Virus record (IMG/VR): IMGVR_UViG_2548876944_000011
Reading direction: 5' to 3' (one strand)
DNA from: a virus
Taxonomy: Duplodnaviria; Heunggongvirae; Uroviricota; Caudoviricetes
DNA: 7,409 bases
A model generated the notes under the pieces. The model was not told the DNA's origin. It saw only the letters and a program-made list of their open reading frames with translations, and made no database searches. A program made the position numbers and the translations under genes. Positions 445-7,204 of the stretch are shown piece by piece (the first letter of the stretch is position 1; the number at the start of each line of letters is the position of its first letter).

Positions 445-475
445 AAAAGATAACTCATTGATGATGTTATCTTTT
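445..475. terminator. perfect 10-bp inverted repeat at the 3' end of dicA (hairpin, possible bidirectional terminator)
   Basis: AAAAGATAAC (445..454), 11-nt loop, GTTATCTTTT (466..475). The dicA stop codon (469..467) lies in the right arm. The T/A runs flanking the GATAAC/GTTATC core could act as U-tracts on either strand. Confidence 0.35.
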
Positions 476-874
476 ATTTGTCCGCTGACGGGCTTTTAGT
501 AATTCTTCAAAGAGTTTATTGAAGTTTTTTACTCGAGCTCGCATTTCGGCGAGCTGGGTATCCTGTTCTGATTCTGGCAGTGCATTAAACAGCTCAAGGA
601 GCTCTAGTTCTTTGGGGGATAAGGCAACTGGCTTCTCAACAGGTGGTGTTGGTTGCTTGTCTTCATCGCCAAATAGAATCCATGTTGGTGAGCATTGCAA
701 TACTTTGCTGAGGGCAAAAAGGTTCTTCCCTGTAGGTTCACTATCACCCCGTTCCCATTGTGATACAGACACATGGGAGATTTTCAGGGCTTTAGCAAGA
801 GACCTTTGGGTGTGTTTGAGGTTTTTCCGACGATACCTGATGCGTTCGCCGATAGTTAAATTTTTTGTTTCCAT
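467..874 (-). CDS. dicA: cI/C2-like HTH (XRE-family) prophage repressor DicA, 135 aa
   Basis: Track ORF METKNLTIGERIRYRRKNLKHTQRSLAKALKISHVSVSQWERGD..., with an N-terminal HTH. It is divergent from a cro-like gene. Recognised from memory as DicA. No obvious Shine-Dalgarno precedes the ATG, so it may be translated from a near-leaderless mRNA like lambda cI. Confidence 0.9.
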   Translation of the reverse strand: METKNLTIGERIRYRRKNLKHTQRSLAKALKISHVSVSQWERGDSEPTGKNLFALSKVLQCSPTWILFGDEDKQPTPPVEKPVALSPKELELLELFNALPESEQDTQLAEMRARVKNFNKLFEELLKARQRTNKR

Positions 875-896: not shown

Positions 897-925
897 TTGA
901 CTATGTTTTTGTTAACATCTATCTT
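897..925 (+). promoter_or_regulatory. sigma70-like promoter Pc for dicC and the early-right operon
   Basis: -35 TTGACT (897..902), 17-bp spacer, -10 TATCTT (920..925). It is followed directly by the operator at 926..941 and by the dicC Shine-Dalgarno and ATG at 958. Confidence 0.5.
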
Positions 926-1188: not shown

Positions 1189-1693
1189 ACAGGCTCGTGA
1201 GGCTCTGGATGCCTGGATATGTCGACCAGGAATGACACAGGAGCAGGCGACGATATTAATCACTGAAGCATTCTGGGCTTTGAAAGAGCGCCCGAACATC
1301 GATGTTCAGCGTGTCACATATGAAGGTGGCGCGATTGATCAGCGAGCGCTTGGCGTTAATCGAGTGAAGATATTTGAACGCTGGAAGGCTATCGACACCA
1401 GGGATAAGCGTGAAAAGTTCACGGCGCTAGTGCCTGCAATTATGGAGGCTATCCGGATTAATGATTTCAGGTTGTATCGTGAAATTACTGACGGAAAAAG
1501 CATCACGTGCATGATCGCCGGGTTAAACAAAGAATATGGCGATGTGGTGGAGTCCGGACTGCTTTTTGCTGATCCTGCCGTAGTGGATCGTGAAACTGAC
1601 GAACTTATAGAAAAAGCAATTGCTTTCAAACTTGCGTATCGACAGCAATACCAACAAAAAGCTGGATGGAATTATGAGCCTTCTTTTTGCTGA
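1172..1693 (+). CDS. YdaT-like prophage early protein, 173 aa (family reported as a functional analogue of lambda CII)
   Basis: Track ORF. The ATG overlaps the dicC 3' end by 17 nt, suggesting translational coupling. The central segment WKAIDTRDKREKFTALVPAIMEAI resembles the conserved REK...L.PAI region I recall from Rac YdaT. The family assignment is from memory, not a search. Confidence 0.7.
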   Translation: MKITPEQAREALDAWICRPGMTQEQATILITEAFWALKERPNIDVQRVTYEGGAIDQRALGVNRVKIFERWKAIDTRDKREKFTALVPAIMEAIRINDFRLYREITDGKSITCMIAGLNKEYGDVVESGLLFADPAVVDRETDELIEKAIAFKLAYRQQYQQKAGWNYEPSFC

Positions 1694-2639
1694 ACGCCCA
1701 CTGGTTATAAACACGCAGCTGGCAATGAAAATTGGCTTAAACGAAGCCATTGTTTTGCAACAACTGCACTACTGGTTGAGAGATACCAACTCCGGCATGG
1801 AATGTGATGGTGTTCGCTGGATTTATAACACAACGGAACAATGGCTGGAACAGTTCCCATTCTGGTCAGAGTCAACGTTAAAGCGCGCGTTTGCAAGTCT
1901 GAAAACGCTGGGGCTTTTGCGTTGTGAAAAGCTCAATAAATCAAAGCGCGATATGACCAATTTCTACACGATCAACTATGGGAGCGAGCTTTTAGATGGT
2001 GGCAAATTGAGCGAATCCATCGGTTCAAAATGCGCCGCTCCATCAGGTCAAAATGACACGATGGAAGAGGTCAAAATGAAACGCTCCATTGGTTCAAAAC
2101 GACCCAATGTCATCGGGTCAAAATGGCCTGATGATCTTACAGAGAATACAACAGAGATTACTACAGAGAATAAAAACACTTTTCGTCCTGAAGCTTCGCA
2201 ACCGGACCCGCAGACGACTGAACAGGATTTTTTAACCCGGAACTCCGACGCGGTTGTGTTTAGTGCGAAAAAACGCCAGTGGGGTAGCAGGGAGGATTTG
2301 GCGTGTGCGCAGTGGATCTGGGGGCGGATCGTGGGTCTCTACGAACAGGCAGCCAGTGATGATGGCGAGATCATGCGACCAAAAGAGCCTAACTGGACTG
2401 CCTGGGCCAATGACGTGCGCACAATGCGGATGCTGGATGGCAGAAGCCACAGACAAATTTGCGAAATGTTTGGTCGGGTTCAGCGAGATCCATTCTGGGT
2501 AAAAAACATCATGAGCCCGTCAAAGCTCCGCGAAAAATGGGACGAACTGGTCATCCGCCTGGGACGTTCACCTGTACAGCGTTGTGTTAATCATATTTCT
2601 GAACCGGATACAGAAATTCCGCCTGGTTTCAGAGGATAA
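1674..2639 (+). CDS. phage replication initiator (lambda O-like replisome organizer), about 321 aa
   Basis: Track ORF 1620..2639 begins at a TTG. The first ATG (1674) gives MSLLFAERPLVINTQLAMKIGLNEAIVLQQLHYWL..., a typical N-terminus for this kind of protein. The C-terminal W-rich region (AQWIWGRIV...NWTAWANDVRTM...FWVKNIMSP) resembles the conserved C-domain of such proteins. Iterons lie inside the gene, as in lambda O. Confidence 0.8.
   Translation: MSLLFAERPLVINTQLAMKIGLNEAIVLQQLHYWLRDTNSGMECDGVRWIYNTTEQWLEQFPFWSESTLKRAFASLKTLGLLRCEKLNKSKRDMTNFYTINYGSELLDGGKLSESIGSKCAAPSGQNDTMEEVKMKRSIGSKRPNVIGSKWPDDLTENTTEITTENKNTFRPEASQPDPQTTEQDFLTRNSDAVVFSAKKRQWGSREDLACAQWIWGRIVGLYEQAASDDGEIMRPKEPNWTAWANDVRTMRMLDGRSHRQICEMFGRVQRDPFWVKNIMSPSKLREKWDELVIRLGRSPVQRCVNHISEPDTEIPPGFRG
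2015..2130. repeat. five direct ~23-bp iterons (candidate origin of replication inside the initiator gene)
   Basis: Core GGT(T)CAAAA(T/C)G occurs with TCAAAA starting at 2025, 2048, 2071, 2094 and 2118 (spacing 23, 23, 23, 24 bp). Three units are preceded by TCCAT. At protein level this appears as the repeated IGSK motif. Confidence 0.6.
2139..2174. repeat. three 12-bp direct repeats ACAGAGA(A/T)TAC flanking the iterons
   Basis: ACAGAGA occurs at 2139, 2151 and 2163 in an A-rich stretch immediately 3' of the iterons. This is the position where a DNA-unwinding element sits in lambda-type origins. Confidence 0.45.
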
Positions 2640-2679
2640 GTGTTGATTTCAGGTCATGAGGTAATTTTAAGGGGGACTT

Positions 2680-3102
2680 GTGGCAAAAGTTTTTACACAA
2701 GAAGAGCGGGAAAAAATTAAATGGCAGGTGGTGGAACTCGTGCGCCAGAGCGGCCGTGAGACGTTACGGCAACTGGAAGCTAAAACAGGTGCGACTAGAT
2801 ATCTGATGAGCGTTCTTGCCAGAGAGCTGGTAGCCAGTGGCGATGTATACAACTCCGGCTACGGGTTATTCCCCTCTGAACAGGCGCGTAAGGACTGGCA
2901 AAACGCCCGCAAAAAACTCTCGAGGGCAAAGGTGAAGAAACCTGCTGTGGTTGATCCGGACCTTATCTGGTCATCACCTGACGGAGAAATACGTCGCTAC
3001 GACAGTCGCCTAAACATAATCTGTCGCGAGTGCCGGAAGAGCGAAGTTATGCAGCGCATACTGGCTTTCTATCAGGGTAATTTTCAGGACGTGGCGCAGT
3101 GA
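2680..3102 (+). CDS. hypothetical phage early protein, 140 aa, possibly DNA-binding
   Basis: Track ORF with a GTG start preceded by AAGGGGGA at 4 nt spacing. The segment TLRQLEAKTGATRYLMSVLARELV looks HTH-like. Its stop overlaps the next gene's start in GTGA. No confident family assignment. Confidence 0.65.
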   Translation: MAKVFTQEEREKIKWQVVELVRQSGRETLRQLEAKTGATRYLMSVLARELVASGDVYNSGYGLFPSEQARKDWQNARKKLSRAKVKKPAVVDPDLIWSSPDGEIRRYDSRLNIICRECRKSEVMQRILAFYQGNFQDVAQ

Positions 3103-3455
3103 GTGCACCGGCAACCATTCTTGATATGTGCTGTGGCAGCCGCATGTTCTGGTTCGATAAGTCTGACGAACGGGCGATATTCAGCGATATCAGAAAAGAA
3201 GGATACACATTACGCAATGGGAGACGCTTGATTATCAGCCCTGACATTATCGCAGATTTTCGTGCATTATCATTTGCAGACGCATCTTTTTCGATGGTTG
3301 TATTAGACCCTCCGCATCTTGAGAGTGTTGGTGATAACGCCTGGATGGGAAAGAAATATGGACGGCTGAATAAAGATGCCTGGCGTGATGATTCGCGACA
3401 GAGATTTAAAGAAGCCTTTCGGGTGTTGAGGCCGCACGGCGTTCTGATTTTTTAA
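3099..3455 (+). CDS. class I SAM-dependent methyltransferase-like protein (DPPH motif), 118 aa as read; probably truncated by an in-frame TAA
   Basis: Track ORF with a GTG start coupled to the upstream stop. It has a motif-I-like ILDMCCGSRMF, an acidic residue after the second strand (IFSDI), a catalytic-type tetrapeptide VVLDPPHL, and RVLRPHGVLIF. The fold is incomplete at the TAA (3453..3455). The same frame continues for 29 sense codons (WNETQIPVSQILALTDRKPVICQRTGKKR) to TAA 3543..3545. Confidence 0.6.
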   Translation: MSAPATILDMCCGSRMFWFDKSDERAIFSDIRKEGYTLRNGRRLIISPDIIADFRALSFADASFSMVVLDPPHLESVGDNAWMGKKYGRLNKDAWRDDSRQRFKEAFRVLRPHGVLIF

Positions 3456-3717
3456 TGGAATGAAACGCAAATACCGGTAAGCCAGATTCTGGCACTGACA
3501 GACAGAAAACCTGTTATCTGTCAACGAACAGGGAAAAAACGATAAAACCCACTGGATTATTTTTATGAAAGAGGCATCCAGTGAGTAGGTTCGTAAGGTT
3601 ACAGATACGTATATCTGAATAATTAAATTCAGTTCTGTAAATAAAATTTAATCCTTAACCGGATGGATTTCTGCACCCTCAGAACATCAGGAGGCCGCCC
3701 GAAAGGGCGGTAGTGAA

Positions 3718-3828
3718 ATGCGAAAGCTCAAAATTATTATTGAAACGGGAATAGCTGGTGGAGATTTTGAGGATGTATTCGAAGTGGACGATGACGCAAC
3801 ACCTGAGGAAATTCATGACGGAGCATAA
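3718..3828 (+). CDS. small acidic ORF, 36 aa, uncertain
   Basis: ATG 3718 to TAA 3826, MRKLKIIIETGIAGGDFEDVFEVDDDATPEEIHDGA. It is preceded by a GAAA-tetraloop hairpin (3694..3710) and a distant AGGAGG. The frame continues acidic (EIFFNYCNYSYHEIKDDEEEQSG) for 23 more codons after the TAA. Confidence 0.25.
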   Translation: MRKLKIIIETGIAGGDFEDVFEVDDDATPEEIHDGA

Positions 3829-3877
3829 GAAATTTTCTTTAACTACTGCAATTACTCATACCACGAAATAAAAGACG

Positions 3878-4069
3878 ATGAGGAAGAACAAAGTGGCTGA
3901 TTTTTGTTCAGCTAAATATAACATCAGTTTTGAAGAGCGGGATGAACTATTAATGGACTATGGTGAGTTACGCGGTGGAAGTGCTGCTGATGTCGAATCC
4001 TAGCGTGATGACTATGAAGCGGGAAAAACTCCGGTCGAAGCATATTGTGATGAGTGGGGCGATGAATGA
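3878..4069 (+). pseudogene. small phage ORF interrupted by an in-frame TAG (about 63 codons if read through)
   Basis: ATG 3878 (or GTG 3893 with GAGGAAG upstream) gives ...VADFCSAKYNISFEERDELLMDYGELRGGSAADVES, then TAG 4001..4003, then RDDYEAGKTPVEAYCDEWGDE to TGA 4067..4069. That stop overlaps the next ATG in ATGA. Confidence 0.3.
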
Positions 4070-4353
4070 GCGAGATTAATTATCAGGAAGGGCATGAAAC
4101 GGCGGGGCAAGCAAAACCAGTGGCATGGCGATATCGCTACGTGAAAAAAGGCGTTACGGACTTTCAGGGGAAGTAGTGGTCTGGTGACTGGAAATATGTA
4201 CCGAAAAAAGAGGATTGTAACGACAGGCCGAACTATCAAATTCAGGCCTTATTCACTGCCTCACCAGTCCCAGTTACATCAGAAGAACTGGTTAAAGCTG
4301 TGCACTTTTATGAACAACTAAAACGCGAAAATCCACCAACATCCGGCAACTAG
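4066..4353 (+). pseudogene. small phage ORF interrupted by an in-frame TAG (95 codons if read through)
   Basis: ATG 4066 gives MSEINYQEGHETAGQAKPVAWRYRYVKKGVTDFQGK, then TAG 4174..4176, then WSGDWKYVPKKEDCNDRPNYQIQALFTASPVPVTSEELVKAVHFYEQLKRENPPTSGN to TAG 4351..4353. The start is coupled to the upstream frame by ATGA. Confidence 0.35.
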
Positions 4354-4607
4354 ATTAATGGATTAACTATGTCGGTTAAACGACCAGCCAACTGAAAAAG
4401 CGGAAACCTGATTACAGGTTGCCAGATAAGGCAATGAGCTACCTGGCGCGGAACGGACTGATAAGTATGGGGAATGTTTTACGATGAACCTTTAGACTAA
4501 AGAGTTTGTAACGCTATGTAAGTGATTTTTTCTGGTTTAGATATTTATATGTCCGGCCAAATTGAGGTGTGTTTAAATGTAATTGCACATTGATTGTAGG
4601 AGGAATA

Positions 4608-4787
4608 ATGAAAAACGCATTGCAGTTTTTGTTTGTTGCGTTCTGGTTGTTCGCATCATGTATGCCCATCATCTTCACAGCAAGGTATATGGAAAAAGTT
4701 GATGTTTTGATATTAATATTTGGATATATAAATGCCCTTTTTTTAGGGGTGTTCATGGCGGTCATGTGCATTGAATACTGGCGGTAA
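4608..4787 (+). CDS. small hydrophobic protein, 59 aa, two predicted transmembrane helices; function unknown
   Basis: Track ORF 4569..4787. The internal ATG 4608 is preceded by a consensus AGGAGG at 6 nt spacing, giving MKNALQFLFVAFWLFASCMPIIFTARYMEKVDVLILIFGYINALFLGVFMAVMCIEYWR. Two ~22-residue hydrophobic stretches are separated by RYMEKVD. The local sequence is strongly AT-rich compared with the replication genes. Confidence 0.55.
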   Translation: MKNALQFLFVAFWLFASCMPIIFTARYMEKVDVLILIFGYINALFLGVFMAVMCIEYWR

Positions 4788-5093
4788 ATACAGCGAACTC
4801 CATTGGTTTAGTTGGATATTTACTGTGCTGGACAAAAACGGTTTGCGGGGAAATCTTAGTTAAGTAGAATGACTGCGGGTGCTTGAGGCTATCTGCCTCG
4901 GGCATGGACACCAACGGCAGATAGAGAAAAGCCCCAGTTAACATTACGCGTCCTGCAAGACGCTTAACATTAATCTGAGGCCAATTTCATGCTAGACACA
5001 TGTAGGTTAGCCTCTTACGTGCCGAAAGGCACGGAGAAGCAGGCTATTGTTAACACCAAGCTGTAATGTCCCCTTTGAACCATTCTAAAATGT

Positions 5094-5120
5094 CCCCAGA
5101 CAATTCTCTGGGGGATTTTT
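5094..5120 (+). terminator. terminator-like hairpin that pairs the transposase Shine-Dalgarno, just 5' of the tnp ATG
   Basis: CCCCAGA (5094..5100), loop CAATTC, TCTGGGG (5107..5113), then GATTTTT and ATG at 5122. The 3' arm contains the G-rich ribosome-binding site. Confidence 0.45.
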
Positions 5121-5121
5121 C

Positions 5122-6435
5122 ATGATCAAAGAGACTGTTACGATGAGTCATAAGGAACTCCACCGACTTCAGATTATTCAGGAACAAGCTGCGGCACGCA
5201 TTGGCATTTCTATTCGGCAGGTTAAACGTCTGGTGCAACGGTATAGAAATGAAGGGCCTTCTGGTCTGGTTTCCCACCGACGTGGAAAGCGTCCTAATAA
5301 TTCCTTTTCTACTGAATTCAGAGCAACAGTAATTTCACTCCTCAAAGGCCGTTACGCTGATTTTGGACCTACGTTTGCGTGCGAAAAATTGCGCGAGATA
5401 CACGGTTTATCTTTATCCGTTGAAACTCTCAGAAAGTGGATGATAGAAGAGGGGTTATGGCGTGAACGCCGTCGTAAAATTGCCCGTATATATCAACGCC
5501 GCATGCGACGACCATCTTACGGTGAACTGATCCAGATTGATGGCTCACCTCATGACTGGTTTGAAAATCGAGGCCCCAGATGTACACTGATCGTTTTCAT
5601 TGATGATGCCACCAGTGCGTTGATGGCGTTGCGTTTTGTGCCTGCTGAAACAACCCGGGCTTACATGGAAACCCTCCGGGGTTACCTTAATGATCATGGC
5701 GTACCGCTCGCTCTCTACTCTGATAGACACAGTATATTCAGGGTAAATAACCCAGAGCGGGAAGGTGAGCTGACCCAGTTCACTCGTGCGATAAAGACAC
5801 TGGGCATCGAGCCAATCCATGCCAACAGCCCGCAGGCAAAAGGGCGGGTAGAGCGCGCCAATCAGACACTACAGGACAGGCTGGTCAAAGAAATGCGGCT
5901 TCAGAATATCAGTGATATTGAAACAGCAAATGCATGGTTGCCGACCTTTATTGAAGCCTATAACAACCGGTTCGCTACGTCGCCTCGTACTACTGATAAT
6001 GCTCATCTTGATGTGCACCATTCTGAAGAGGAACTGGGTTATATCTTCAGCCTACAGGCGAAGCGCGTTCTGTCTAAAAATCTCACTTTCCAGTACAAAA
6101 GCAGTGCGTTTCAGGTACGCAGTGAGGGCCGGGGATATCGACTTAGGCATTCGGTTGTTACTGTATGCGAGAACTTTGACGGTGAAATTAACGTTCTGTA
6201 TGACGGGAAAGCGCTGGGCTGGGAAAAGTATGTTGATGGCCCGGAGCCTATACCACCGGATGATGAAAAGAGTGTCCATGAACGAGTGGATAATGCCCGT
6301 ATTGATTTACGCTCAAAATACTATGTTAAACCTAAAGCTGACCATCCCTGGCTTACGCGCCGAACGCAAAGTCATCAGCAAGTTAAGCCCCCGAAGTTAC
6401 CTAAAAAGAAGCCTGATCCCGATAAAAAAGATTGA
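5122..6435 (+). CDS. DDE transposase with an integrase-core (rve-type) fold, 437 aa; IS481-like or ISNCY-like, family not assignable by eye
   Basis: Track ORF. N-terminal HTH region (RIGISIRQVKRLVQRYRNEGPSGLVSHRRGKRP). Candidate catalytic triad in QIDGSPHDW, LALYSDRHSIF and NSPQAKGRVERANQTLQDRL. Basic lysine- and proline-rich C-terminal tail. Confidence 0.85.
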   Translation: MIKETVTMSHKELHRLQIIQEQAAARIGISIRQVKRLVQRYRNEGPSGLVSHRRGKRPNNSFSTEFRATVISLLKGRYADFGPTFACEKLREIHGLSLSVETLRKWMIEEGLWRERRRKIARIYQRRMRRPSYGELIQIDGSPHDWFENRGPRCTLIVFIDDATSALMALRFVPAETTRAYMETLRGYLNDHGVPLALYSDRHSIFRVNNPEREGELTQFTRAIKTLGIEPIHANSPQAKGRVERANQTLQDRLVKEMRLQNISDIETANAWLPTFIEAYNNRFATSPRTTDNAHLDVHHSEEELGYIFSLQAKRVLSKNLTFQYKSSAFQVRSEGRGYRLRHSVVTVCENFDGEINVLYDGKALGWEKYVDGPEPIPPDDEKSVHERVDNARIDLRSKYYVKPKADHPWLTRRTQSHQQVKPPKLPKKKPDPDKKD

Positions 6436-6871: not shown

Positions 6872-7204
6872 TTAGACGTAAATATCAATGGTGCCAGCGG
6901 TATTTGTATCGTCTTTTTTCTCTTCTTTTTTATCAGGCTGAACTGTCGCGTCTTCATTCTTTTTCTCTGCCTGCTGCCTTAACAACTGCTCCAGTTGAGC
7001 CCAGAGGCTTTCAATTTGCTTCTGTACCAATGCAGCCATTTCTTTTTTCTGCTGTGTCGTCATCCCCTCTTCCGATGAGATTTTCCCAAGCTTTTCAGTC
7101 AGCACCTGAATTTGTCTTGTGATTTTGGCTATTTCTGATGTTCCTTCCGGGGCGGAGTTGTTTGAAATAACGGTTGAGGTATTTCCCTGAATTGTGACAG
7201 ACAT
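6872..7204 (-). CDS. flxA: FlxA-like protein, 110 aa (prophage-borne gene of the flagellar sigma-28 regulon)
   Basis: Track ORF MSVTIQGNTSTVISNNSAPEGTSEIAKITRQIQVLTEKLGK... AGGAG lies 6 nt upstream of the ATG. A sigma-28 promoter lies upstream. Recognised from memory as FlxA. Confidence 0.85.
   Translation of the reverse strand: MSVTIQGNTSTVISNNSAPEGTSEIAKITRQIQVLTEKLGKISSEEGMTTQQKKEMAALVQKQIESLWAQLEQLLRQQAEKKNEDATVQPDKKEEKKDDTNTAGTIDIYV

Follow-up and report, generated by a model that had tools for sequence, protein, structure and literature searches.

A putative lambda-type replication origin within a gene of the uncharacterized phage initiator family phrog_391

Lambdoid origins of replication consist by definition of iterons and an AT-rich tract in the central part of gene O (PMC7466680), and a central position within the initiator gene is common to the origin of lambda (ori/O) and the six-iteron origins of the Stx phages 933W and P27. 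A comparable layout occurs in RepA_N theta plasmids of the Firmicutes, such as pSK41 and pTZ2162. RepA_N iterons are semi-palindromes that converge on a poly-A tract (PMC7145576), and the origin of pSK41 lies within the Rep gene itself, in its central, dispensable linker (PMC5703833). Since origins inside the initiator gene are textbook knowledge for both lambda and RepA_N plasmids, finding one more is ordinary in itself. The initiator family described here is essentially unannotated and lacks a Pfam model, yet it is present in about one-third of complete E. coli genomes (phrog_391; 1849 of 5426), and its members are mostly labeled “hypothetical protein.” No prior description of this type of origin was found in the searchable open-access literature, and a search of the literature for binding, unwinding, or replication experiments on the initiator family likewise returned none.

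The DNA analyzed here, referred to below as the window, is a 7,409-nt stretch with the gene order dicA (on the minus strand), dicC, cII-like gene, and initiator. We propose, with a probability of about 0.85, that positions 1995 to 2185 are the vegetative (theta-type) origin of a DicA/Qin-type lambdoid prophage of E. coli, located inside the initiator gene. An iteron-type origin embedded in this gene had been suggested in an initial annotation, and this suggestion is supported by properties computed directly from the DNA and its relatives: the repeats with their symmetry and codon phases, conservation at the DNA level, covariation with the N-domain, a stability minimum, and an intact gene whose domain layout includes a predicted disordered linker. 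The features are as follows.

897..925, + strand: predicted pR-like promoter, TTGACT-17-TATCTT, upstream of dicC/cro (consensus scan only)
1674..2639, + strand: initiator gene, 321 amino acids, phrog_391 “replication initiation O-like” (E = 1e-91)
1995..2017, + strand: iteron 0, degenerate sixth unit (GGTGGCAAATTGAGCG; GATGGTGGCAAATTGAGCGAATC), in 23-bp register with the other units
2018..2040, + strand: iteron 1 (CATCGGTTCAAAATGCGCCGCTC), core kept in 10 diverged relatives
2041..2063, + strand: iteron 2 (CATCAGGTCAAAATGACACGATG), imperfect palindrome, 16/22 positions self-complementary, near-invariant among relatives
2064..2086, + strand: iteron 3 (GAAGAGGTCAAAATGAAACGCTC), identified by repeat search, 23-bp register, and conservation in relatives
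2087..2109, + strand: iteron 4 (CATTGGTTCAAAACGACCCAATG), imperfect palindrome, 16/22 positions self-complementary, conserved in relatives
2111..2133, + strand: iteron 5 (CATCGGGTCAAAATGGCCTGATG), imperfect palindrome adjoining the candidate unwinding tract, 16/22 positions self-complementary, conserved
2138..2185, + strand: candidate DNA-unwinding element, three tandem 12-mers (TACAGAGAATAC / AACAGAGATTAC / TACAGAGAATAA) at 2138-2173 plus an A-rich tail
3099-3455: truncated methyltransferase gene, downstream of the initiator
5122-6435: ISNCY element, downstream of the initiator

The locus resembles the origins of lambda, 933W, and P27 in having four to six iterons of ∼20 bp that show internal dyad symmetry and have a TCAAAA(C/T)G-like A-tract at the center, an A-rich tract of low stability directly downstream of the iterons, origin DNA that encodes a flexible linker, a homologous C-domain, and a position downstream of a cro/cII-type early operon. 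The architecture of lambda gene O, to which the locus had initially been likened, is matched in its iterons, its low-stability tract, and its C-domain, but not in the N-terminal DNA-binding domain, which is unrelated in sequence, or in the presence of a P gene, which is absent here. Further differences from lambda are that the iterons are 23 bp rather than 18 to 19 bp, that the candidate unwinding tract consists of three 12-bp repeats, and that the initiator has a DnaT-like tail that lambda O lacks. The likeness to pSK41 and pTZ2162 lies in the size of the initiator (∼320 amino acids), a winged-helix N-domain (tentatively predicted here with AF2), an origin-encoded central linker, a C-domain that is host specific in both, and semi-palindromic iterons converging on poly-A. 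In contrast to the RepA_N plasmids, the initiator here has no sequence match to PF06970, is found in a phage rather than a plasmid context, and has a lambda-O-like C-domain where theirs is DnaG binding.

The initiator ORF is intact, as it had appeared in the initial annotation, and the encoded protein is identical to that of phage PhiR42_1 (99.9% identity to the O gene). The same DNA, IS included, has been deposited as PhiR42_1. The gene is 98.1% identical to that of HannyBb and 96.6% identical to that of mEp460_ev081; HannyBb, which is from bird faeces, and mEp460 are deposited phage isolates, and nearly the same iterons are found in all three phages. The protein matches PHROG 391 over its full length (E = 1.1e-91, residues 17 to 321 on profile positions 11 to 298 of 298). 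Its predicted layout comprises a winged-helix N-domain (approximately amino acids 10 to 105), an origin-encoded disordered linker (108 to 177), a lambda-O-like C-domain (approximately 197 to 294), and a DnaT-like tail (approximately 301 to 321). Origin DNA at 1995-2175 corresponds to amino acids 108 to 167, inside the linker segment 109 to 177, which has a pLDDT of ∼25 in an AF2 model that is moderately confident overall (mean pLDDT of 57; 65 to 84 in the N-domain).

The C-domain shares 34% identity with lambda O over 148 amino acids (BLASTP, E = 1e-26), and in an alignment with lambda O, the last iteron and the linker are colinear with those of lambda. Alignment of the N-domain with lambda O residues 1 to 128 detected no similarity (hhalign probability of 0.04%); its best fold match is to RepA_N plasmid initiators, with weak E values of ∼0.01 (Foldseek search with the AF2 model). 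The initiator had no Pfam match at E ≤ 0.01, including to Phage_rep_O and RepA_N (PF06970). Pfam and NCBIfam scans returned nothing beyond the short DnaT-like tail, and a sequence search of the PDB returned only the tail and a spurious match to YteR. The last 21 residues, VQRCVNHISEPDTEIPPGFRG, match the C terminus of E. coli DnaT (primosomal protein I), and the likeness is confined to them: the NCBIfam equivalog for full-length DnaT scored 16.2 bits against a cutoff of 201, with the match restricted to residues 302 to 321. This tail accounts for the “Primosomal protein I” labels on mEp460 homologues. No role for the extreme DnaT tail is stated in the Ducos 2026 preprimosome paper.

The initial annotation listed five repeats of ∼23 bp beginning at 2015. 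The array is real, but it contains six units and starts ∼20 bp farther upstream. Positions 1995 to 2133 consist of six 23-bp repeats, the first of them degenerate, with spacings of 23, 23, 23, 23, and 24 bp, a common core (GGTCAAAATG), and CAAA anchors at 2003, 2026, 2049, 2072, 2095, and 2119. A direct-repeat search returned a five-copy family (spacings of 23, 23, 23, and 24 bp) of which iteron 0 is a 67% member, and TRF reported a period-23 array at 2016-2089. The motif GGTYAAAAYG occurs three times, compared to 0.07 expected occurrences (0/200 shuffles). Lag-23 self-identity across 1995-2133 was 0.56, a value equaled by none of 5000 shuffles (maximum of 0.45), and this is the strongest periodicity between 15 and 35 bp in the whole window. 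The iteron form CATCnGGTCA-AAA-TGACnnGATG is semi-palindromic, its arms converging on a poly-A tract, and iterons 2, 4, and 5 (units 3, 5, and 6) are self-complementary at 16 of 22 positions (CATCnGGTCAAAATGACnnGATG). In relatives, the unit orthologous to iteron 0 is a good iteron, GAGGTCAAAGTGACC. Neither DnaA boxes near the origin region nor an Rfam family within it was detected.

Relatives whose N-domains are 54 to 63% identical have different iterons at the same place and with the same period (GGGCAAATTGCAC, GGACAATTTGTCCC, and GTCAATATGACC), and the unrelated N-domain family represented by the Stx-phage “O” has iterons of the GGGAAACC type. This pattern indicates that iterons change together with the N-domain while their position and period stay constant, and it lends indirect support to binding of the iterons by the initiator.

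The unwinding elements of E. coli oriC and RK2 oriV are AT-rich 13-mer tandem repeats that adjoin the initiator-binding array. Here too, short tandem AT-rich repeats lie next to the iterons: three copies of a 12-mer with the consensus ACAGAGA(A/T)TAC directly downstream. They differ from the oriC and oriV repeats in length and sequence, in being intragenic with a fixed reading frame, and in being conserved across phyla and unrelated initiator N-domains. The three 12-bp ACAGAGA repeats noted initially in an A-rich stretch were recovered at 2138-2173, with 46% A and 31% GC over 2134-2185 (45% GC in the window). A direct-repeat search returned them as a three-copy, 12-bp family at 2138-2175, and TRF detected an array of period 12 at 2139-2172. 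Stability within the gene is lowest for the 40 bp beginning at 2136 (dG of −45.6 versus a gene mean of −56.4, standard deviation of 3.6), which places the tract ∼3 standard deviations from the mean, and its position is exactly that of the AT-rich unwinding tract of lambda.

The same 25-mer is found behind at least six iteron classes and at least three C-domain types, a 40-nt stretch is 97.5% identical in the otherwise unrelated O genes of Stx phages, and the 12-mer motif recurs, codon choices unchanged, in relatives from Geobacillus, Anoxybacillus, Brevibacillus, and Staphylococcus (Bacillota). These comparisons indicate DNA-level constraint on the 12-mer downstream of at least six iteron classes, Bacillota included, and nucleotide conservation that extends from Enterobacterales to Geobacillus and Staphylococcus across initiators with unrelated DNA-binding domains. 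Cross-phylum conservation of this kind is the one feature of the locus that a specialist might not expect. As a tentative possibility, the 12-mer CAGAGA(N)TAC(W) may be an undescribed sequence-specific origin element, acting in unwinding, single-stranded DNA binding, or helicase entry, rather than a generic AT-rich tract; linked to this, loader-less initiators may connect to the replication-restart or DnaB-DnaC machinery of the host by means of a DnaT-mimicking C-terminal tail. The 12-mer could also be conserved for some reason besides unwinding.

The repeat region is translated, the segment that it encodes is predicted to be disordered, and translation of the 12-mers yields a regular (T-T-E-N/I)n peptide, read in one constant frame even in unrelated initiator families. 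These observations would fit repeats that exist at the protein level only, as a low-complexity, repetitive linker whose DNA has no function of its own, but we give that reading almost no credence, and the analyses of frame and codon use already contradict it. The iteron cores fall in codon phases 3, 2, 1, 3, 2, and 2 and encode differing, unrelated peptides (GSK / GQN / VKM); since all three phases are used, the 23-bp unit repeats as DNA rather than as peptide. The initial annotation had raised the prospect of a protein-level repeat lacking DNA-level conservation in relatives, and such conservation was found: across 10 diverged orthologues, the majority fraction was 0.93 in the iteron cores (41 of 60 positions invariant), 0.86 in their arms, and 0.95 in the 12-mers (30 of 36 columns invariant) versus 0.70 at third codon positions of the folded N-domain (8 of 85 invariant), a large excess that includes synonymous sites, although the orthologues are not phylogenetically independent and these statistics therefore overstate significance. 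Within the TTE motif, Glu is encoded by GAG over GAA 179:5, compared to 552:780 elsewhere in the same genes; the preceding Thr is ACA in 156/156 cases, compared to 21% elsewhere; Asn is always AAT (60/60), and Ile is always ATT (41/41). The single variable nucleotide of the 12-mer yields the chemically unrelated residues N, I, S, and T. A different role as DNA has a precedent in plasmid iteron arrays and cloned lambda ori fragments, which titrate the initiator and exclude homologous phages (PMC3349717), and the iterons might by analogy serve mainly in regulation or titration (through autoregulation, the exclusion of related phages, or incompatibility) instead of as an initiation site. We consider this very unlikely, as the array invariably occurs together with the neighboring 12-mer tract of low stability, inside the initiator gene, the same arrangement is seen in the proven origins of lambda (PMC7466680) and pSK41 (PMC5703833), and no further cluster of iterons is present in the rest of the 7,409-nt window.

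Matches in E. coli genomes break exactly at the end of the 12-mers (gene position ∼500): one covers gene positions 1 to 504 at 99.8% identity (H77), while two others cover positions 500 to 962 at 86% behind a different N-terminal part (H78 and H79). Together with the near-identical 40-nt stretch in Stx-phage O genes and the 25-mer shared among iteron classes and C-domain types, these breakpoints would suit a tract that is not an unwinding element but a joint at which interchangeable N-terminal (origin-specific) and C-terminal (host-specific) modules recombine, or else the binding site of another factor. This explanation is conceivable but doubtful. The presence of the motif and its codon choices in the four Bacillota relatives makes recent recombination with enterobacterial phages implausible there, and the tract coincides with both the lambda unwinding position and the stability minimum of the gene; the joint and unwinding roles are, moreover, not mutually exclusive. 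It is also unlikely, in our view, that the locus is a true origin by descent but a fossil in this prophage, unable to fire owing to a defective element or the lack of a helicase-loading partner. Such decay would be in keeping with the degenerate iteron 0 of this lineage, the ISNCY element and truncated methyltransferase gene just downstream, the absence of a P, DnaC, or DnaB-type gene after the initiator in the window, where a DUF977/LygF gene and then the methyltransferase fragment follow, and a DicA-type repressor in which a domain scan found an HTH domain only and no S24 self-cleavage domain. Because of this repressor, SOS induction may fail for a reason unrelated to the origin. Against decay stand the intact initiator ORF, with its identity to PhiR42_1 and close similarity to HannyBb (98%) and mEp460 (96.6%), and the fact that all three of these phages share the loader-less layout and have almost identical iterons. 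In Stx phages, promoter-distal iterons bind O weakly yet are needed for replication (PMC7466680), and one weak distal unit is therefore not disqualifying.

On the preferred reading, a lambda-type origin (iterons plus unwinding tract within the initiator gene) in an uncharacterized initiator family, we infer how binding, melting, helicase recruitment, and firing of this prophage copy might proceed. Dimers of the predicted winged-helix N-domain would bind the six semi-palindromic 23-bp iterons, whose inverted arms flank a central A-tract and whose spacing is ∼2.2 helical turns. Binding would bend or wrap the DNA into an O-some-like complex, and the resulting stress would be released in the adjacent A-rich tract of 12-bp repeats, which would melt and provide a helicase entry site. 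Since the module itself lacks a loader gene, the lambda-O-type C-domain and DnaT-like tail would bring in the host helicase machinery directly. Transcripts starting at the predicted pR-like promoter would extend across the cII-like gene and the initiator gene, so that transcription would cross the origin as in lambda.

Recognition of such origins helps to predict which “cryptic” prophages remain able to amplify once derepressed, to type immunity and incompatibility by iteron class, and to build small phage-derived replicons. Some relatives with the same N-domain do carry lambda-P or IstB/DnaC-like genes. A GFRG-type tail was considered as a predictor of a missing loader and was rejected: an IstB/DnaC-like gene follows 13 of 94 tailed and 25 of 104 tail-less initiators. 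Matches labeled “plasmid” are mostly circular phage genomes of 40 to 50 kb, not classical plasmids, and as evidence for autonomous maintenance they are weak. One circular lambdoid genome of 43.7 kb, assembled as an extrachromosomal replicon, encodes an initiator that is 69% identical.

The window corresponds to the early-right region of an E. coli lambdoid prophage of the DicA/Qin type, and many E. coli chromosomes contain it entire at 99.9% identity. Its features are as follows.

467-874, minus strand: dicA-type repressor, HTH only
958-1188: dicC/cro
1172-1693: cII-like/YdaT protein
1674-2639: initiator, 321 aa; phrog_391 "replication initiation O-like" (E value of 1e-91), without a Pfam family
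2680-3102: DUF977/LygF gene
3099-3455: methyltransferase fragment
5122-6435: ISNCY transposase
6872-7204, minus strand: flxA

The methyltransferase open reading frame (118 aa) covers positions 52 to 165 of the 229 in its PHROG profile, and the ∼1.6 kb between it and the insertion sequence (3456-5121) contains no open reading frame of >85 aa, which suggests that the nin-like region is decayed or rearranged. Directly 5' of the ISNCY element, positions 4877-5048 (plus strand) match the Rfam model of the sok antitoxin RNA (RF01794) over its full length, with 104 bits versus a gathering score of 59.

The initial annotation described five iterons and three 12-bp units within the initiator gene. A direct-repeat search, with which TRF agrees, recovered both the five-copy family (spacing of 23, 23, 23, and 24 bp) and the three 12-bp units (2138-2175), but anchoring on CAAA (2003, 2026, 2049, 2072, 2095, and 2119) raises the iteron count to six; the first unit (1995-2017) is degenerate in the window and a good iteron in relatives. 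The motif GGTYAAAAYG occurs 3 times versus 0.07 expected. A 23-bp lag is the strongest 15- to 35-bp periodicity in the window, with a self-identity over 1995-2133 of 0.56 that none of 5,000 shuffles reached. Three segments (2041-2063, 2087-2109, and 2111-2133) are imperfect palindromes, self-complementary at 16 of 22 positions (CATCnGGTCAAAATGACnnGATG).

The array could have been a repeat of the protein only, the outcome that the initial annotation named as evidence against an origin. Codon phases and conservation in relatives both place the repeat at the DNA level. The six cores lie in codon phases 3, 2, 1, 3, 2, and 2 and encode unrelated peptides (GSK, GQN, and VKM). We aligned ten diverged orthologues from E. 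albertii, Citrobacter, Raoultella, Enterobacter, Izhakiella, a Klebsiella phage, and mEp460_4F5. In the folded N-domain, the majority fraction at third codon positions was 0.70 (invariant columns, 8 of 85), compared with 0.93 in the iteron cores (41 of 60), 0.86 in the iteron arms, and 0.95 in the 12-mers (30 of 36); the orthologues are mutually related and so are non-independent samples, but the within-gene contrast is still large.

The 12-mer tract encodes the peptide (T-T-E-N/I)n, and its codon use was compared inside and outside the motif in the genes of 59 relatives found via protein similarity. Glutamate in the motif is encoded by GAG in 179 cases and by GAA in 5, versus 552 and 780 elsewhere (Fisher P of ∼1e−54). 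The threonine preceding it is always ACA (156 of 156, versus 21% elsewhere), asparagine is AAT (60/60), and isoleucine is ATT (41/41); the sole freely varying nucleotide yields N, I, S, or T. From these comparisons, we conclude that the tract is constrained as DNA. The least stable 40-mer of the initiator gene is 2136-2176 (nearest-neighbor dG of −45.6 versus a mean of −56.4, standard deviation of 3.6), and 2134-2185 is 46% A and 31% GC. Position and low stability point to a putative unwinding or helicase-entry element.

The tract was searched in IMG/VR as an exact string, and an alignment of the N-domain only (A1) was searched against one-genome-per-species contigs as a DNA-unbiased search. 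Two to five copies of the consensus CAGAGA-N-TAC-W lie behind iterons in Enterobacterales, Xenorhabdus, Proteus, Pantoea, Gilliamella, and a contig binned as Pseudomonadales. The consensus is also found in Geobacillus, Anoxybacillus, Brevibacillus, and Staphylococcus; in Geobacillus, GTTCAAAATGA iterons with a 21-bp period precede CCAGAGAATACTACAGAGATTACTACAGAG. This cross-phylum, DNA-level conservation is the feature worth follow-up. In lambda, just past the AT-rich tract, TCAGAGAATTCT (lambda 39163-39174; 864-875 of L208, our lambda locus) matches the consensus ACAGAGAATACA at 9 of 12 positions, perhaps by coincidence, and overlaps the ori EcoRI site.

The iterons themselves differ among relatives. 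Where N-domains are 54 to 63% identical, arrays with the same position and ∼23-bp period are built of other units (GGGCAAATTGCAC, GGACAATTTGTCCC, and GTCAATATGACC), the unrelated N-domain family of many Stx phages ("O") has units of the GGGAAACC type, and one additional class has the unit ATGAGGAAAAACCACATAC. This co-variation is the pattern that would be expected of type-specific initiator-iteron recognition. The 12-mer, whose codon choice is unchanged from Enterobacterales to Geobacillus and Staphylococcus, follows iterons of at least six sequence classes and occurs with two N-domain families that are unrelated (window 2138-2173 and related loci L006 2501-2540, L007, L128-L207, and L008-L127). 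Five of these loci (L128, L129, L169, L172, and L179) place an enterobacterial-type initiator in metagenome-assembled genomes labeled as unrelated taxa (Veillonella, Bacillota, Desulfuromonas, Hydrogenimonas, and Pelotomaculum) and are most likely binning contaminants, because their identity to the E. coli sequence reaches 100%.

In E. coli genomes, the N-domain with its origin is paired with the C-domain in differing combinations, and the exact point at which matches to the gene break off is where the 12-mer tract ends (gene position ∼500, window ∼2173-2177). The modules therefore meet in the tract, which is a mosaic joint. Stx-phage O genes, though otherwise unrelated, contain a 40-nt stretch with 97.5% identity, and relatives have other C-domains (Phg_2220_C and DnaB_2) fused to this N-domain and origin.

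The lambda origin consists of iterons and an AT-rich tract in the central part of gene O (PMC7466680), and the proposed likeness to it holds for this layout. The C-domain (∼aa 197-294) is homologous to that of lambda O (34% identity, E value of 1e−26), and the alignment is co-linear, so that the linker and last iteron line up with those of lambda. In contrast, the N-domain has no similarity to lambda O and is of another family, the iteron unit is 23 bp, the candidate unwinding tract is made of repeats, and there is no P gene. Lambda has four iterons and Stx phages six (PMC7466680; GenBank features), of which the distal ones are weakly bound yet required in Stx phages (PMC7466680). Modeling with AlphaFold2 from a 14-sequence alignment (mean pLDDT of 57) predicts a winged-helix N-domain (aa 10-105, pLDDT of 65 to 84) and a helical C-domain; the origin DNA (1995-2175) encodes aa 108-167, within a low-confidence segment (aa 109-177, pLDDT of ∼25). 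The same three-part layout is found in the RepA_N initiator pSK41 Rep (319 aa), which binds Rep boxes centrally in its own gene, within a dispensable linker (PMC5703833); RepA_N iterons have been described as semi-palindromes that converge on a poly-A tract (PMC7145576).

In kind, the element is a textbook origin, and the computational evidence supports an origin within the initiator gene as an uncharacterized new case. We found no account of this initiator/iteron family or the 12-mer in the open-access literature searched. Most database entries label the protein "hypothetical," and at least 80% of the gene is present in 1,849 of 5,426 complete E. coli genomes.

In the window (2640-3455), the initiator is not followed by a gene of the P, DnaC, or DnaB type, and the same is true of phages PhiR42_1, HannyBb, and mEp460_ev081 (L001-L003, 6007-6800), which share an identical loader-less gene order with DUF977/LygF next. 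A lambda-P-like or IstB/DnaC-like gene does follow the initiator in other relatives that have this N-domain. The last 21 residues of the initiator (VQRCVNHISEPDTEIPPGFRG, window 2574-2636) match the extreme C terminus of E. coli DnaT (2ru8, 6aep, and 9zbt). Since this P-x-GFRG tail persists on relatives with differing C-domains, its conservation suggests a short host-protein docking motif; recent preprimosome structures give the DnaT tail no role. The tail does not mark the lack of a loader gene, as an IstB/DnaC-like gene follows 13 of 94 tail-bearing initiators.

The initiator, apparently intact in the initial annotation, has an intact reading frame. Its gene shares 99.9% identity with the O gene of PhiR42_1 (host ECOR13; record containing the same insertion sequence and flxA), with an identical protein, and 98.1% and 96.6% identity with those of HannyBb (from bird feces) and mEp460_ev081. 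A pR-like promoter lies 5' of dicC. A relative with a 69% identical initiator, NZ_CP081704.1 (L209), is a circular, complete lambdoid phage genome of 43,680 bp, assembled as an extrachromosomal replicon and labeled an E. coli plasmid, and it has no plasmid replicon type. Together, these observations make the replication module plausibly competent. Many more 40- to 50-kb "plasmids" with initiator homologues occur in Klebsiella, Enterobacter, Bacillus, Lactobacillus, and Staphylococcus.

Classical SOS induction of the prophage is doubtful. The DicA-type repressor contains HTH domains alone and lacks an S24 self-cleavage domain, and SOS is therefore the wrong trigger for the coverage test proposed in the initial annotation. 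Two related phages, L004 and L209, encode LexA-like S24 repressors in place of the DicA type.
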